Shown in pieces: positions 104 through 5,005 of a stretch of DNA of 5,005 bases. Position 1 is the first letter of the stretch. The number at the start of each line of letters is the position of its first letter. The DNA comes from a virus (Duplodnaviria > Heunggongvirae > Uroviricota > Caudoviricetes). A program made the translations under genes and the position numbers. The notes under the pieces were generated by a model that was not told the origin of the DNA, did not search any database, and was given only the letters and a program-made list of their open reading frames with translations. Where the stretch lies: the IMG/VR virus record IMGVR_UViG_2698536450_000013, one strand, 5' to 3'.

Positions 104-2155
104 AGTAAATCAAGAAAGTCTGTAAAATCTGTTGAGCCGGAAATTACCGAACTGGCGAACTCATGGCTTAAATCTTACAGGCTTGATTACAAGTTGCAGA
201 ATGCATCACTTAACGGAGAGATCGATAACGCACTGGACGCTTATTTTTCGAAAAATGGCGGCGCAGGCGGTAATCGTCCCGACGTAAAACTCCTTGTTAA
301 GGACAAATACGGCAAGCAGTATCCCGTTCTCATCGAGTATAAAGGCTACAAGGACAGGCTTATCAGACTTGGCAGCAACGGTATTATTGAGAACAAAGAT
401 GCCAGAAAAGAATGGAATTTTAAAAATATTAATGGATACGCGGTGAATGGCGCAGTCCATTATGCCAACGCACTTCTTCAGTTCACCAATTACCCTGATA
501 TTATTGCTATTGGTATGACCGGCTGGCGCGATGATGGTACAGGCGAACTGCATCATGAAATCGGCGTGTGGTACGTATCAAAGAATAATTTAGGAGCCGG
601 ACAGAAGGTTGGTGAATTCACCGACTTATCGTTCCTTGCTGATAAAAATGTTGATGGATTTCTCAACAAGATAAAGCTGCTTAATCTTCCTCCCGAAGAA
701 CTGGAAAAAATCAAGGCCAGCAAAGAGGAAGAGATAGACACGCGACTTTCCCGTCTGAATAACGATATTTACCAGAATGAAAAGGGGCTTGGTGAAAGTG
801 ATCGTGTTTACCTTGTTGTGGCTACCGTTATTGCAACGTTGGGGATTCCGGGAAAGTTAGCACCGCTGGATAAAAAAGAACTGACCTCTTCAACGGAGGA
901 GGACTTGCGTGATGGTGATATTATTTTCAGGAAAATAAGGAATTTTTTAAGGCTGAAAGCTGTTCCTGAAACAAAAAGAGAAATGATTTTGCGCTCGTTG
1001 CAAAATACGCTGTGGACTGAAAACATTAACAAACCAGTCAACGGTGAAAGCCAGTTAAAGCGCGTGTTTGTTAAAGTTGTTGATGATCTTGGGGAGTATT
1101 ACAAAATTGGACTGACCACCGATTTTACGGGCAAACTGTTTAATGAGATGTATCGCTGGCTTGGATTTACGCAGGACAAGCTCAATGACGTCGTTCTGAC
1201 ACCACCTTATGTTGCCACATTGCTGGCACGACTCGCCAGAGTAAACAAAGATTCCTATGTGTGGGATTTTGCTACAGGTTCTGCGGGATTGCTTGTGGCT
1301 GCAATGAATGAAATGCTCATTGACGCCAGAGAAAATATTCACTCACCGAACGAACTACAACTTAAGGAAGCGCAAATCAAGGCTGAACAGCTTCTTGGCC
1401 TTGAGGTGTTATCCAGTATTTATATGCTGGCCATCCTGAATATGATTTTGATGGGGGATGGTAGCTCGAATATCCTCAATAAAGACTCGCTGGCCGATTT
1501 TGACGGCAAGTATGGATTTGGGAAAACAGGAGAAAAATTCCCTGCGGACGCATTTATTCTCAATCCTCCGTATTCAGCTAAAGGTAACGGCATGATTTTC
1601 GTGCAGAAGGCGCTGTCGATGATGGATAAAGGCTATGCTGCAGTGATTATCCAGAGTTCAGCTGGCACAGGAAAGGCTACGGAGTACAACAAAAAAATAC
1701 TCAAGGAAAATACCTTGCTGGCAAGCATCAAAATGCCTGCGGATCTGTTTATTGGTAAATCAAGCGTTCAGACGTACATTTACGTTTTTCAGGTAAAAAT
1801 TCCGCATAACGCGAAACAGGCTGTTAAGTTTATCGACTTTTCCAATGACGGCTACGCTCGCTCTAATCGCAAAAAGGCAAGAAACAATCTTGTTGATGCC
1901 GATCGTGCAAAAGAGCGTTATCAGGAGGTTGTGGATCTGGTTCACTTCGGGAAAGGTTGCCTTAATATCTTTACGGAGGATGAATATTTTGAGGGAACAA
2001 TCGATCCTGATAGTGGTGAGGACTGGAATCAGACCAGGCCAGTAGATGCTAGGCCAACGCTGGAGGATTTCAAAAAGACGGTAGGTGATTACCTTGCATG
2101 GGAGGTCTCGCAATTACTGAAAAAACAAGGTGAAAACAATTTTGCGGGAAAGTAA
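2..2155 (+). CDS. 5'-partial CDS: gamma-class N6-adenine DNA methyltransferase with an N-terminal putative PD-(D/E)xK nuclease domain (Type IIG/IIB-like or Type I HsdM-like modification subunit)
   Basis: Frame 2 has no stop from the window start to TAA at 2153-2155. The ORF track starts at TTG 194 only because there is no ATG/GTG/TTG earlier; the upstream translation (SVEPEITELANSWLKSYRLDYKL) reads as ordinary protein and TTG 194 has no convincing Shine-Dalgarno. Motifs seen: LTPPYVATLLARLARV followed by VWDFATGSAGLLVAA (SAM-binding motif I, about nt 1258-1300), FILNPPYS (catalytic motif IV, about nt 1552-1575), and the post-NPPY region AAVIIQSSAG...LASIKMPADLFIGKSSVQTYIYVFQV typical of HsdM/MmeI-type enzymes. 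N-terminal RPD (D codon 281-283) ... IEYK (E 335-337, K 341-343) fits PD-x(n)-ExK. Confidence 0.8.
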   Translation, partial: QRPATSDQRPATSDQRPATSDQRPATSDQRPATSSKSRKSVKSVEPEITELANSWLKSYRLDYKLQNASLNGEIDNALDAYFSKNGGAGGNRPDVKLLVKDKYGKQYPVLIEYKGYKDRLIRLGSNGIIENKDARKEWNFKNINGYAVNGAVHYANALLQFTNYPDIIAIGMTGWRDDGTGELHHEIGVWYVSKNNLGAGQKVGEFTDLSFLADKNVDGFLNKIKLLNLPPEELEKIKASKEEEIDTRLSRLNNDIYQNEKGLGESDRVYLVVATVIATLGIPGKLAPLDKKELTSSTEEDLRDGDIIFRKIRNFLRLKAVPETKREMILRSLQNTLWTENINKPVNGESQLKRVFVKVVDDLGEYYKIGLTTDFTGKLFNEMYRWLGFTQDKLNDVVLTPPYVATLLARLARVNKDSYVWDFATGSAGLLVAAMNEMLIDARENIHSPNELQLKEAQIKAEQLLGLEVLSSIYMLAILNMILMGDGSSNILNKDSLADFDGKYGFGKTGEKFPADAFILNPPYSAKGNGMIFVQKALSMMDKGYAAVIIQSSAGTGKATEYNKKILKENTLLASIKMPADLFIGKSSVQTYIYVFQVKIPHNAKQAVKFIDFSNDGYARSNRKKARNNLVDADRAKERYQEVVDLVHFGKGCLNIFTEDEYFEGTIDPDSGEDWNQTRPVDARPTLEDFKKTVGDYLAWEVSQLLKKQGENNFAGK

Positions 2156-2195
2156 ATTCCCCGCTCAGCGATAAATTAAGAAGCGTTGAGTGGGG
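2146..2195 (+). promoter_or_regulatory. Candidate programmed -1 ribosomal frameshift cassette: slippery heptamer G_GGA_AAG (2146-2152), in-frame TAA (2153-2155), 6-nt spacer, 12-bp stem-loop (2159-2170 paired with 2184-2195, 13-nt loop)
   Basis: GGA and AAG are the last two sense codons of the upstream ORF. The -1 frame (GGG AAA GTA AAT...) is the frame of the downstream ORF, which is open from 2134. Stem CCCCGCUCAGCG pairs with CGUUGAGUGGGG (10 Watson-Crick plus 2 G-U); it may extend to 14 bp from 2157. Confidence 0.45.
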
Positions 2196-2214
2196 AGAGT
2201 TCAGGATTGGCGAT

Positions 2215-3309
2215 TTGTTCTATGTGAGCACAGGCTCGCTTATCTCCTCAGGAAGATTAAAACCAGGCAAAATCAAACGTGTTTCAGCAAAGAGCGATCA
2301 AAACGGTATCATCGGAGAGTTTGATACCGAGTTTATGGATGATGCAAGGCATTATGAAAATTTTATAAGCGTTAATTTTTTTGGAGATGCTTTTTATCAT
2401 CCTTATTGTGCCAGCGTAGAAATGAAGGTGCATGTTCTTACATTAAAATCAAGTAAGTCCGACTTTAATGCAAAGCGCGGACTGTATGTTGCCAGTATGA
2501 TTAATAAAGCTTTAAAGGGGCGTTTTAATTATGGTCAACAGTTATCGAGTTCCAAACTCAGAGATGGAGAATATTTCATCTCATTACCAGTGAAAAATAA
2601 TGAAATTGACTGGTTTTTTATGGATAATTATATAGAAGAGCTGGAAGCGGCCCATATAGAAGAGCTGGAAGCATACCTGATAGCTGCTGGGCTGAGTGAT
2701 TACCAACTAACGGAAAAAGATTATCTTATCCTGGAGCATTTTAAAAATATTGAATTTTCAGGCTTTCCTGTTACTGAGTTATTCTCAGTGTGCAATACAG
2801 GAAACATATTGTCTAGAGACATCATAGAAAATAGTGGGGATGTTCCTTATCTTTGTGCTAGCCGTGATAATAACTCTGTTAGTTCTTATATCGCCTATGA
2901 TGACTCACTCTTGGAAAAAGGGAACTGTATTTTTATTGGTGGTAAGACATTCGTTGTAACTTATCAGGAGCGAGACTTTTTTTCAAACGACAGTCATAAT
3001 TTGCGACTCTATGTTAACAATGAGGATGGAAGGACAAAGTTTGCTTATTTGGGCATTATTTCATGTATTTATAGGTCTATTTCACATAAATATTCATGGG
3101 GGGATAGTGTTAGTAATAGAAAAATTAAGAACGATGTTATTTGGTTGCCAGTGAAAAATAAGTCACCTGACTTTTGTTATATAAATGACCTTATTTCAGT
3201 TGTTCATAAGCTTGTCATTAAAGATGTTGTCCAGTACGCAGAACGCAAAATGAACGCATACAGGCAAGCTATAACAAGTCGCGGTTATGATGATTCTGGT
3301 GTCAGTTAA
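2215..3309 (+). CDS. Restriction-modification specificity (S / HsdS-like, BcgI-B-like) protein with two target-recognition domains; true N-terminus probably upstream of 2215 (frame open from 2134)
   Basis: ORF-track ORF of 364 aa ending at TAA 3307-3309. No ATG or GTG start and no Shine-Dalgarno; the listed start is TTG. The upstream in-frame translation VNSPLSDKLRSVEWGEFRIGDLFYVSTGSL looks like the start of a target-recognition domain. A second domain begins similarly (FSGFPVTELFSVCNTGNIL, about nt 2760). A repeated central region (IEELEAAH IEELEAYL) lies between them. The gene is visibly more AT-rich than the tRNA/TerB region. Confidence 0.7.
   Translation: MFYVSTGSLISSGRLKPGKIKRVSAKSDQNGIIGEFDTEFMDDARHYENFISVNFFGDAFYHPYCASVEMKVHVLTLKSSKSDFNAKRGLYVASMINKALKGRFNYGQQLSSSKLRDGEYFISLPVKNNEIDWFFMDNYIEELEAAHIEELEAYLIAAGLSDYQLTEKDYLILEHFKNIEFSGFPVTELFSVCNTGNILSRDIIENSGDVPYLCASRDNNSVSSYIAYDDSLLEKGNCIFIGGKTFVVTYQERDFFSNDSHNLRLYVNNEDGRTKFAYLGIISCIYRSISHKYSWGDSVSNRKIKNDVIWLPVKNKSPDFCYINDLISVVHKLVIKDVVQYAERKMNAYRQAITSRGYDDSGVS
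2630..2672 (+). repeat. Tandem duplication of a 24-bp (8-codon) unit inside the S-subunit central region: two perfect 19-bp copies of ATATAGAAGAGCTGGAAGC at 2630-2648 and 2654-2672
   Basis: Direct reading; the period is 24 bp, so it is in frame, encoding IEELEAAH / IEELEAYL between the two target-recognition domains. Confidence 0.9.
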
Positions 3310-3376
3310 AAAACATTTTACAATCGTAAAAATCCTCATATCATGATAAGAATGGTTACATTGCCACGCTGCTTAA

Positions 3377-3398
3377 CCCGCCGATGCGCGGGTTTTTT
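3377..3398 (+). terminator. Putative rho-independent terminator downstream of the S gene
   Basis: GC stem CCCGC (3377-3381) / GCGGG (3388-3392) with a 6-nt loop, followed by TTTTTT (3393-3398). The stem is short. Confidence 0.5.
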
Positions 3399-3573
3399 GT
3401 ATCCGGAATTCTGTGGGTTACCCTGCCCCCCTTAGAAAGGTGCGACAGCAATTAATAACAAAATCTTAAAAATCGCATATGGCACTATTAGTTTTCTAAA
3501 TATTGTATATTTTAAGTATTGCAGGATAACCCTGTAACGAAGTTTGCGTAACAGCATTTTGCTCTACGAGTTT

Positions 3574-3602
3574 GCCAGCCTCCCCCAGTGGCTGGCTTTT
3601 TT
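3574..3602 (+). terminator. Putative rho-independent terminator
   Basis: 7-bp stem GCCAGCC (3574-3580) / GGCTGGC (3590-3596) with a 9-nt loop, followed by TTTTTTAT. Confidence 0.6.
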
Positions 3603-3604
3603 AT

Positions 3605-3724
3605 GTCCGTAGCGTCAAAGCAGCAATGGCGCTGGGGCGTCGTGCAATTGGCGTTGAGCTGGAGAGCGGGCGTTTTGAGCAGACGGTCAGGGAAGTTCAG
3701 AATGTAGTCAGTCAGAACGGATGA
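3605..3724 (+). pseudogene. 3'-terminal remnant of a beta-class (CcrM/Dam-like phage) DNA methyltransferase gene; N-terminal and catalytic parts absent
   Basis: Frame 2 translation ending at TGA 3722-3724 reads ...AAMALGRRAIGVELESGRFEQTVREVQNVVSQNG*. This resembles the segment that follows the C-terminal SAM-binding motif in beta-class amino-methyltransferases (pattern LGR-x-[FA]-IG-[IV]-E). The expected DPFxGSGTT motif is missing upstream, where the sequence is non-coding-like and contains the terminator. Confidence 0.45.
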
Positions 3725-3764: not shown

Positions 3765-3840
3765 GGCCCTTTAGCTCAGTGGTGAGAGCGAGCGACTCAT
3801 AATCGCCAGGTCGCTGGTTCAAATCCAGCAAGGGCCACCA
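3765..3840 (+). tRNA. tRNA with anticodon CAU, resembling enterobacterial tRNA-Ile2 (lysidine, AUA-decoding) more than initiator or elongator tRNA-Met
   Basis: Hand-folded cloverleaf: acceptor GGCCCTT/AAGGGCC, D-stem GCTC/GAGC, anticodon loop CTCATAA, T-stem GCTGG/CCAGC, T-loop TTCAAAT, encoded CCA at 3838-3840. Confidence 0.88.
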
Positions 3841-3847
3841 TCACATA

Positions 3848-3924
3848 CCGCCATTAGCTCATCGGGATAGAGCGTCAGCCTTCGAAGCTGGTTGCGCGGG
3901 GTTCGAGTCCTCGATGGCGGTCCA
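3848..3924 (+). tRNA. tRNA-Arg, anticodon read as UCG (CGA/CGG-decoding)
   Basis: Hand-folded: acceptor CCGCCAT/ATGGCGG, D-stem GCTC/GAGC, anticodon stem TCAGC/GCTGG, loop CTTCGAA (U33, anticodon TCG at 3882-3884, A37), T-stem CGGGG/CCTCG, T-loop TTCGAGT, discriminator T, encoded CCA. Confidence 0.82.
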
Positions 3925-3937
3925 TTATCTGCACACT

Positions 3938-4014
3938 GTGTTGTTAGCTCAGCCGGACAGAGCAATTGCCTTCTAAGCAATCGGTCAGTGGTTAGACTCC
4001 ACTACAACGCGCCA
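3938..4014 (+). tRNA. tRNA-Arg, anticodon UCU (AGA-decoding, rare codon)
   Basis: Hand-folded: acceptor GTGTTGT/ACAACGC (one G-U), D-stem GCTC/GAGC, anticodon stem ATTGC/GCAAT, loop CTTCTAA (anticodon TCT at 3972-3974), T-stem AGTGG/CCACT, T-loop TTAGACT, discriminator G, encoded CCA. Confidence 0.85.
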
Positions 4015-4027
4015 CACTTATTTTCCA

Positions 4028-4051
4028 GGCTCGCTTCGGCGGGCCTTTTTT
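4028..4051 (+). terminator. Rho-independent terminator closing the tRNA cluster
   Basis: Stem GGCTCGC (4028-4034) / GCGGGCC (4039-4045) with a UUCG tetraloop (4035-4038), followed by TTTTTT (4046-4051). Confidence 0.7.
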
Positions 4052-4183
4052 GTATCTGCGCCACGCCCGGCGCATATCAACCACAGAGCCTTTCGGGGGT
4101 GAGCTTACGGAGTGGTCAGTGTGACTTTCTCTGTGGGCAGATCGCTCCCGGGCGTTGGCTCACCCACCCAAAGGAACGTCACG

Positions 4184-4615
4184 ATGTTTGGTATTTTTGG
4201 TAAAAAAGCCCGCCGAGCGGCAGTGGAAATTAAAAAGTTTGAGAAACGTGATCTGGCACAGGCGGTTATTAATGCTGCCTATCTGGTGGCCTATGCAGAT
4301 GGTGAATGTGAGGCTTCAGAGAAAGCGAAGATCGAGCAGGTCTTGCGTAACCAGCCTGCGTTGTCCGCGTTTACGTCAGAAATTAATGCGATTAGCGCAA
4401 CCATTATCGGTCAGCTGGATACCAATTTTAAAATTGGTCGTCGTGCCGCGTTACGCGAGATTGAGGATGTGAAACACGATACGCGTGAAGCGGAAGACGT
4501 GCTGGATGTGGCGGTGGCCATTGCCGAAGCAGACGGCGAAATAGAGCCGGAAGAGCGCAAGGTGCTGGAAGAGATTGCCGGTGTTCTGGGCCTTCGTCTG
4601 GAGAATCATCTGTGA
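4184..4615 (+). CDS. TerB-like (tellurite-resistance TerB family) domain protein, 143 aa
   Basis: ATG at 4184 is preceded by AAGGA (4171-4175) at 8-nt spacing; stop TGA 4613-4615. Two acidic ADG motifs typical of the TerB fold: VAYADGECEASEKAKI and IAEADGEIEPEERKVL. The ORF-track start at GTG 4112 adds 24 residues with no ribosome-binding site. Confidence 0.7.
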   Translation: MFGIFGKKARRAAVEIKKFEKRDLAQAVINAAYLVAYADGECEASEKAKIEQVLRNQPALSAFTSEINAISATIIGQLDTNFKIGRRAALREIEDVKHDTREAEDVLDVAVAIAEADGEIEPEERKVLEEIAGVLGLRLENHL

Positions 4616-4623
4616 CGGTAAAA

Positions 4624-4776
4624 ATGCGTCTGGCTGTGGTTGCGCTCCTGCTGTTTCTGGTGGTGATGGTGGACTTCAGCAGTCGGATAATGTCAGTGCT
4701 GGCTGACGGTGTGCTGGTGGCGGGTGTGGTGGTTGTTGCTTTCCCGTTGCTGAAAAAGAAAGCATCAGGCGATTAG
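4624..4776 (+). CDS. Small hydrophobic protein (50 aa, probably a single- or double-pass membrane peptide), possibly co-transcribed with the TerB-like gene
   Basis: ATG 4624 to TAG 4774-4776 encodes MRLAVVALLLFLVVMVDFSSRIMSVLADGVLVAGVVVVAFPLLKKKASGD: two hydrophobic stretches and a basic C-terminus. It starts 9 nt after the TerB stop; an in-frame GTG at 4612-4614 overlaps that stop. No strong Shine-Dalgarno, and it is below the ORF-track length cutoff. Confidence 0.35.
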   Translation: MRLAVVALLLFLVVMVDFSSRIMSVLADGVLVAGVVVVAFPLLKKKASGD

Positions 4777-5005
4777 CAGGGTATCAGTTACCCGTTGAAA
4801 TTTTTAAATACCTCACAATTCAGGCGGTTGACTGTTGTCTGGTTTGCGGGGAGTTTGTTAAAAGAAACTGGCATGGTGAATCCCCCTGTGCGGAGGGGCA
4901 ATCAGCAACCAGGTATATGTGATAATCGCGGATTCAGGTGCTGATACTGAATTCACCGGGAGGCACCCGGCACCATGCTTTGCCACAAAAGTGTTGTTTC
5001 TGTTT

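Follow-up and report, generated by a model that had tools for sequence, protein, structure and literature searches.

A protein of the TerB family that is encoded directly behind a run of transfer RNA (tRNA) genes in a prophage, and is followed at once by a very small hydrophobic protein, raises the question of what such a pair does for its carrier and how its production is controlled. The case considered here lies in a stretch of 5,005 nucleotides (nt) from a virus of the Caudoviricetes (IMG/VR record IMGVR_UViG_2698536450_000013), the whole of which is referred to as the window, and was first singled out by a prediction made from the sequence alone, which saw at 4112-4776 a possible membrane-targeted stress or abortive-infection module. 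As a pair, the two genes have been described and annotated before, under the names tciA–tciB (TerB and DUF3927 in Pfam; families 632 and 1470 in PHROG), which were reportedly given by homology in phage P1 in 2004, and no functional study of tciA or of DUF3927 was found in the literature searched. What is new is the conserved folded leader of tciA and not the gene pair. The balance of probability tilts slightly towards the view that an undescribed, possibly pseudoknotted leader family, which occludes the Shine-Dalgarno (SD) sequence, gates unrelated accessory genes of enterobacterial phages, with tciAB being a minimal two-gene TerB system.

The Folded Leader of tciA

The region of approximately 135 nt that runs from a terminator-like hairpin to the ATG of tciA shares 77-88% nucleotide identity between loci whose TciA proteins are only about 41-43% identical, with about 75% in jumbo phages, and is more conserved than the tciA coding sequence. 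The structured leader delineated by conservation and covariation spans 4058..4183, approximately 125 nt, and is described by a model of four helices, namely H1 (4058-62 / 4069-73), Ha (4081-88 / 4129-36), Hc (4089-93 / 4170-74), and Hb (4097-4105 / 4157-65), which lie on the plus strand together with tciA, tciB, the tRNA genes, and the hairpin. Hc pairs an anti-SD strand with the SD of tciA, and Ha crosses both Hb and Hc, which makes either a pseudoknot or an alternative fold possible. The leader folds more stably than its shuffles (z=-3.3). No Rfam 15 family was found in 4058-4183 by cmscan at E<=0.1, the matches in the window being the tRNAs and STnc100; a sub-threshold minus-strand match to Plastid-ycf2 (36.3 bits against a gathering score of 65.7) overlaps the first tRNA.

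In alignments that were fitted to the model, which favours it, and whose covariation is drawn from a limited number of lineages, 95.6% of the cells were paired among 18 sequences (A10), with 8 double-changed pairs compared with 1.3±1.0 in shuffles and 1-3 in slid controls; the addition of paralogous leaders (A11) gave 14 double-changed pairs versus 3.0±1.4 in shuffles; and among 86 distinct sequences (A12), 96% of the cells were paired with 14 double-changed pairs versus 3.2±1.0, eight of the nine pairs of Hb being compensatory. Across these three alignments, Hc pairs the SD in 98.6-100% of the sequences. A nested minimum free energy (MFE) fold of the leader was also considered and set aside, having 85% of cells paired as against 95.6% and double changes no better than those of slid controls. 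The covariance model utilised in the searches below was built without Ha, the complementary pairs of which vary between sequences (CCACAGAG/CTCTGTGG, CGAGAG/CTCTCG, CCGTAGAG/CTCTACGG, and CCCGAG/CTCGGG); the best Ha match averages 5.95 bp versus 4.78 bp in shuffled controls, which lends this helix modest support.

The conserved fold of the leader holds the ribosome-binding site in a pairing, and the translation of tciA is therefore probably gated. The simplest reading of these sequence comparisons is that the leader would serve as a translational gate occluding the SD of accessory genes. The short inverted repeat H1 could equally be a DNA operator.

A Leader Shared by Unrelated Accessory Genes

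With the covariance model, the full-length leader was recovered in front of tciA in the loci of E. coli, Pantoea, Pseudescherichia, Franconibacter, and ChrisDB, and none was found in those of P1, SP-076, LIET2, Serratia, Pectobacterium, and Aeromonadaceae. Weaker, paralogous leaders occur elsewhere in the tciA loci (for example L090:3278-3420, L004:4976-5097, L172:7447-7566, and L139:8287-8429), each running into the SD and ATG of some other gene. When viral contigs were scanned for a pattern of the 3' half of the leader, at least 120 loci (L184 onward) were returned, and when 80 of the pattern loci were searched, all but one or two matched the model from end to end, the exceptions falling at L204, L215, and the L225-L236 region. 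Among the matches listed, the downstream gene encodes TciA in 22 of 120 and a Rha-family regulator in 41 of 120, the others being scattered; a protein of 272 amino acids (aa) follows in 28 of 120, again among the matches listed, and in a further 10 of these 120 there stands a 272-aa protein without a Pfam match, whose glycosyltransferase-like look is an impression only. The family of about 270 aa found after the leader yielded only a sub-threshold Pfam match to a tail-tip protein.

If confirmed as a regulatory RNA, the leader would constitute a new and widespread control element for the expression of phage cargo, in effect a common post-transcriptional switch for phage morons, and its reach would include the cargo at the locus that carries stx in Shiga-toxin phages.

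The annotated position of ISEc20, an insertion sequence of the IS110 family, coincides with the point at which the match to the leader breaks off, at about leader position 48 and just after AGAGCCTTTCGGGGG, in records LC567818 to LC567841 (PPompW prophages), which match window positions 4020-4099; as far as the sequences go, these junctions suggest site-specific insertion into the repeated leader. An identification of the leader with the Pas small RNA (sRNA) was considered and rejected on grounds of position, since the Pas and STnc100 elements are found on the far side of tciB, near the esterase and holin genes.

TciA and TciB

The open reading frame (ORF) delimited mechanically spans 4112..4615, and the start of tciA is placed within it at ATG 4184, which is backed by the SD AAGGA at 4171-4175 (8 nt upstream), by the RefSeq start, and by the conserved N-terminus MFGxFKKK. 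The gene thus delimited (4184..4615) encodes a soluble, acidic, cytoplasmic protein of 143 aa with two acidic motifs, AYADGECEASE (residues 36-46) and AEADGEIEPEE (residues 114-124), the length and the pair of motifs being as the original prediction had described them. The residues D39, G40, and E46 of the first motif and D117, G118, and E124 of the second are invariant or nearly so in homologue alignments A1 and A8. The TerB fold ascribed to it at the time is likewise borne out: TciA matches Pfam TerB PF05099 (E=3.9e-16, 59.8 bits against a cut-off of 24.4), PHROG 632 ‘tellurite resistance’ (E=3e-69), and, over residues 15-137, the solved TerB of K. pneumoniae (2JXU, E=6e-8), it is 41% identical to P1 TciA over the full length, and its AlphaFold2 (AF2) model, built from 19 homologues, is all-alpha (pLDDT 88, pTM 0.82). 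The sole confident neighbour of this model in the PDB is 2h5n (PG1108; probability 1.0, TM 0.55-0.62), an entry annotated as of unknown function, which we take to be TerB-like itself. By all sequence and fold criteria tested, TciA is a member of the TerB family.

The second gene, tciB (4612..4776), encodes a 54-aa hydrophobic DUF3927 peptide that is recognised by Pfam, PHROG, alignments, hydropathy, and AF2. A 50-aa strongly hydrophobic ORF beginning 9 nt after the TerB gene had been predicted here, together with a possible GTG start overlapping the TerB stop. The hydrophobic character holds and the GTGA overlap is present, whereas the length and the spacing need amendment: the ATG version (4624, 50 aa) begins 8 nt past the TGA, and GTG 4612 is taken as the true start because a GGAG SD read from the sequence lies at 4600..4603, inside the 3' end of tciA and 8 nt before the GTG, because RefSeq utilises this start, and because K4 and R6 are conserved in homologues. 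The peptide has a grand average of hydropathy (GRAVY) of 1.45, and its two hydrophobic stretches, residues 7-20 and 26-46, are split by a conserved D21-F22-(S/T)-x-(R/K) segment; it is basic at both termini, and the conserved residues comprise K4, R6, D21-F22, S28, D32-G33, and P45. These features are in keeping with the small membrane partner of TerB that had been proposed, as a predicted property of a conserved peptide.

TciB matches DUF3927 (PF13064) with E=4.8e-20 (71.7 bits against a cut-off of 25) and PHROG 1470 ‘TciB-like’, of the category moron, with E=1.6e-24, and is 50% identical to P1 TciB. Its relatives form 867 clusters at 90% identity, and a profile search over 1.84 billion representative proteins returned 133 clusters (50% identity), essentially all stand-alone and of 45-65 aa; with so many homologue clusters at either level, tciB is a real gene and not a chance ORF. 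Neither a larger membrane protein with the TciB motif nor a link to TerC, DjlA, or YebE was found in the profile search of these representatives, and no similarity to a holin, antiholin, or toxin family was returned by Pfam, PHROG, or the profile search, the only families matched being DUF3927 and PHROG 1470. An apparent natural fusion of TerB and DUF3927 (P0127) was dismissed, as it looks, like P0185 and the other long matches (P0304, P0340, P0352, and P0363), to be a frameshifted or chimeric call.

A Proposed Membrane-Tethered Module and its Distribution

There is, in our estimation, an even chance that tciAB is a two-part, membrane-tethered TerB module that is made in lytic growth. TciB would insert in the inner membrane and tether or partner TciA there. 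Other TerB domains are tied to the membrane, via TerC in ter operons and via a fused transmembrane helix in DjlA and YebE, and a TciB tether would, by analogy, copy these ties. The overlap of start and stop favours coupled translation of the two genes. As judged from its context, the pair would be made mainly in lytic growth, since it lies behind a terminator and opens the Q-antiterminated late operon, ahead of the lysis genes. Speculatively, the module might condition or protect the infected cell's inner membrane up to the time of programmed lysis, perhaps through the buffering of ions or metals or through resistance to depolarising insults, and the exclusion of pore-forming colicins or superinfecting phages would be a likely side effect. 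It would be no suicide or defence device of the lysogen.

The pairing of the two genes is well kept. In the window it is 99% identical in nucleotides to the annotated tciA/tciB of Escherichia phage JLK-2012, and part of it is matched in 2362 of 5426 complete E. coli genomes, at up to 8 places per genome. Since a scan of viral contigs with the TciA alignment gave only near-identical E. coli copies, the diversity discussed here comes from annotated phages and species genomes. Hidden Markov model matches to TciA and TciB are adjacent in 174 of 184 loci, the remaining 10 being remnants or very divergent small transmembrane ORFs, and in a sample of one genome per species both genes are present in 13 of 14 loci, the fourteenth having a divergent small hydrophobic ORF at the same place. 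The question posed earlier of whether the small ORF is conserved beside TerB homologues can thus be answered affirmatively. The species sample with the pair covers Pantoea, Pseudescherichia, Franconibacter, Enterobacter, Dryocola, Serratia, Symbiopectobacterium, Pectobacterium, and a metagenome-assembled genome of the Aeromonadaceae. In P1, Fostie, the Erwinia jumbo phage ChrisDB, the Salmonella phage FSL SP-076 of the N4-like group, the phage LIET2 of Pantoea, and an Actinobacillus phage, the distance between the stop of the TerB gene and the start of its neighbour ranges from -8 to +3 nt, so that the translational coupling suggested at the outset would extend, on the spacing seen, to each phage lineage examined.

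TciA-type TerB homologues occur in 131 phage records, including obligately virulent lineages such as the N4-like FSL SP-076 and Pollock, jumbo Erwinia and Salmonella phages, and the lytic PMBT3, and TciB is present in the virulent SP-076, Pollock, and ChrisDB. The genome papers of Pollock and PMBT3 called the role of the lone terB in a lytic phage unknown. Such a spread through virulent and temperate phages alike would also fit a counter-defence decoy, in which the phage TerB mimics host TerB sensors (those of the ter cluster, Shango, Bunzi, and Dionysus) and blocks their activation at the membrane; production in lytic growth is what an anti-defence gene would call for, and TciA is a full-length homologue of bacterial TerB. 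This explanation is nonetheless improbable, as the conservation of the acidic motifs suggests a TciA that retains the biochemical activity of its family and is no inert mimic, and a simple decoy needs no obligatory membrane partner.

Disrupted copies of tciA are common in E. coli prophages. When 80 viral contigs were recovered by TciB only, a tblastn match to TciA lay immediately upstream in 65, a truncated tciA in 9, and a tciB-only remnant in 6; among the 65, tciA is both frameshifted and nonsense-mutated in 27, and several others are cut or fused. The gene is a pseudogene beside an intact tciB in many E. coli prophage contigs (L015-L017, L020-L030, L032-L037, L039-L045, for example L026:2570-3001, and L062:2768-2992), with an extra A in the A-run of codon 7, a TAG at codon 46, and the change Y37C in the first ADG motif as its defects, or else an N-terminal deletion that leaves 74 aa; truncated TerB clusters (P0163, P0169, P0180, and P0214) hold hundreds of member sequences. 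Since many of these copies may share descent, the pseudogenes may represent few independent events. Together with the finding of a genome-wide CRISPR interference (CRISPRi) screen that the P1 genes are non-essential, the disruption and truncation of so many E. coli copies might be taken to mean that the pair is a functionless, decaying moron spread by recombination. This is very improbable: intact pairs are found from Aeromonadaceae to Escherichia and in phage types that are not related to one another, their proteins being 30-50% identical, their motifs invariant, and their gene overlap kept, and the leader has undergone compensatory evolution.

Timing of Expression and the Weighing of the Readings

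In temperate phages, the pair typically stands after a Q-like antiterminator and before the holin and endolysin. An intrinsic-terminator-like hairpin of 8 bp (6 GC) followed by a T-run, found by a terminator scan at 4027..4052 and present as the same hairpin in the MFE fold, closes the tRNA unit in the window and sits between any upstream promoter and tciA; between it and the tciA ATG, no sigma-70-like site was found at the scan threshold. In P1, tciABC lies downstream of the C1-operated ban promoters, TciA peptides were detected in purified P1 lysate preparations, and tci transcripts were measured in P1vir infection.

Among the annotated families of the three ORFs that follow the pair, those of holin and endolysin are the most frequent, and a holin comes within about 100-550 nt in Fostie, in the Actinobacillus phage, and in several contigs; in Fostie, one or two small ORFs without annotation lie in between. 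A role as a lysis-timing accessory would explain this site upstream of the lysis cassette, TciA and TciB modulating the triggering of the holin in an antiholin-like or membrane-stabilising manner, and TciB, as a small membrane peptide, is of holin-like size. The pair is, however, away from the lysis genes in the P1, N4-like, jumbo, and LIET2 phages, in the window it is separated from the holin by an sRNA and a 1.85-kb esterase gene, and no holin or antiholin family is matched, which together leave a lysis-timing role with little likelihood. As the interval from Q to S is a general insertion hot spot, the site of the pair near the lysis genes may be incidental.

The neighbourhood also holds real defence cargo, namely a type IIG restriction-modification (RM) enzyme (757 bits) and Hok, which counts in favour of a prophage defence or abortive-infection system: expressed in the lysogen, TciA would sense a phage at the membrane, and TciB would kill or depolarise the cell as a small pore-forming effector. 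TerB-domain proteins are part of the validated systems Bunzi and Shango, Dionysus pairs a TerB-like protein with a pore-forming toxin of four transmembrane segments, and the ter cluster has phage-inhibition and colicin-resistance phenotypes in the literature. A defence or abortive-infection role, which the original prediction had favoured, is not supported, because the pair is also carried by obligately virulent phages, because it lies in a late operon behind a terminator with its SD occluded (or, in P1, under C1 repression), because tciA is a frameshifted and nonsense-mutated pseudogene in many E. coli prophages, and because in PADLOC-DB v2 no model matches TciB, and the sole match of TciA is PDC-S48 (E=0.0032), without a qualifying stretch or domain. 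TciB, moreover, resembles no known toxin or holin family in Pfam, PHROG, or the profile search. tciAB is not a member of any catalogued defence system, and a defensive function is unlikely.

Several observations weigh against the membrane-tethered module itself. The CRISPRi screen mentioned above found P1 tciA, tciB, and tciC alike to be non-essential. In the AF2 model, residues 3-51 of TciB form one unbroken helix (pLDDT 88) and no hairpin, and the first of its hydrophobic stretches is of 14 residues only. Pseudomonas phage AF and Vibrio phage K481 carry a TerB gene without a DUF3927 partner, and in K481 no small partner ORF follows the TerB gene. TciA sequences of 95-100% identity occur with a TciB of 100%, about 85%, or about 70% identity (L006-L046 and L091-L169), and the TciA type of about 41% identity carries a TciB at 64-68%; this mosaicism of alleles implies recombination at or within the gene junction, and the shuffling of TciB alleles argues against tight co-evolution of a TciA–TciB interface. 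Expression in the lysogen may also arise by read-through or from an unrecognised promoter.

A separate observation in phage AF concerns an unannotated and unrelated 73-aa ORF (L086:1932-2153) that has one strong transmembrane segment and a GTG overlapping the TerB stop, and which may be a non-homologous analogue of TciB.

The conservation of this two-gene version in phages that range from P1 to the N4-like and jumbo types argues that phage-borne TerB serves the phage in lytic growth and not the lysogen. To our knowledge, no biochemical function of TerB has been established since the first description of the ter cluster, and tciAB would be the simplest genetic system in which to approach it and could answer the decades-old question of how TerB acts.

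Genomic Context of the Window

The full window is 99.5% identical to E. coli Z1323HEC0393 and is, by this comparison, part of the cargo carried in the late region of a lambdoid prophage of E. coli. In that genome, antiterminator Q is followed by Hok, a type IIG RM enzyme with its specificity subunit, a DNA methylase remnant, and three tRNAs, then by a TerB family protein (tellurite resistance), DUF3927, a SASA (sialate O-acetylesterase) esterase, holin, lysozyme, spanin, and terminase. The three tRNA genes (3765..4014), which were recognised by ARAGORN, Rfam, and RefSeq and are context only, lie directly 5' of the module and were placed by ARAGORN at 3765-3840 (CAT anticodon; tRNA-Ile in RefSeq), 3848-3924 (Arg TCG), and 3938-4014 (Arg TCT); the position of the pair behind tRNAs in a prophage was thus correctly called from the sequence alone. 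The tRNA neighbours vary, being Ile2/Arg/Arg in the window and Asn/Thr/Gly in JLK-2012 (L001), whilst P1 (L003) has Asn/Thr upstream and Ile downstream and ChrisDB (L005) carries tciAB inside a tRNA array. As most loci outside E. coli have no nearby tRNAs, the link between tRNAs and tciAB may merely reflect a common insertion hot spot.

Upstream, the RM region (194-3309) encodes the type IIG enzyme of 653 aa, which scores 757 bits against PADLOC REase_MTase_IIG, and a specificity subunit of 364 aa that is intact in the window and annotated as broken in the closest genome. The DNA methylase is reduced to a C-terminal remnant of 50 aa (3572-3724); since related contigs, L062 among them, encode the complete protein of 349 aa, most of this gene appears to have given way to the RM cassette. 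Right after the specificity gene, a sigma-70-like site, TTTACA-16-TATCAT (10/12), and a terminator-like hairpin are found at 3317-3344 / 3375-3394, upstream of the methylase remnant and the tRNAs, and these signals may mark the tRNAs as a transcription unit of their own. Past the pair, between tciB and the SASA esterase gene, a strong Rfam match to STnc100 (105.8 bits, E=3.7e-23) covers 4842-5005 and runs past the 3' end of the window; by its position it is the counterpart of the prophage sRNAs of the PasD/STnc100 type that Zhu, Shabalina and Storz describe in a 2026 preprint.

Comparison with Known Systems

The closest counterpart is tciAB of P1, where a TciA homologue is likewise followed by a TciB homologue with an overlapping start, with tRNA genes close by, and where the genes are non-essential accessories made in lytic growth. 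The locus differs from it in having no tciC, as no comparable ORF lies past 4776 and the next feature is the STnc100-like RNA; in belonging to the Q-dependent late operon of a lambdoid prophage, whereas the P1 genes sit in the C1-controlled ban operon; and in carrying a structured leader that the region upstream of P1 tciA lacks. With the TerB of the ter cluster of tellurite, colicin, and phage resistance (terZABCDE; 2JXU), TciA shares family, length, an all-helical fold, paired acidic motifs, and a membrane partner encoded by the neighbouring gene, which in ter operons is terC. The partner here is a peptide of 54 aa for which no relation to the multi-span TerC was detected; none of terZ, terA, terC, terD, and terE was found in the window or within 12 kb on either side in the near-identical genome. 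tciA is not a ter-operon TerB, and no report of tellurite, colicin, or phage resistance conferred by it was found in the literature searched.

Bunzi, Shango, and Dionysus resemble tciAB in combining a TerB-like protein with membrane proteins, that of Dionysus being a small pore former with several transmembrane segments. They differ in that tciAB has no helicase, ATPase, MAEBL, or four-transmembrane toxin partner, and in that they sit in host defence islands whereas tciAB is phage-encoded, in virulent phages among others. The leader, for its part, can be set beside RNA thermometers, translational riboswitches, and pseudoknotted operators such as that of T4 gene 32, all of them SD-sequestering leaders; like them, the tciA leader pairs its SD to an upstream anti-SD, and it has further helices with compensatory changes and a possible pseudoknot. 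Unlike them, it has no match in Rfam 15, and a leader of the same type precedes many unrelated accessory genes.

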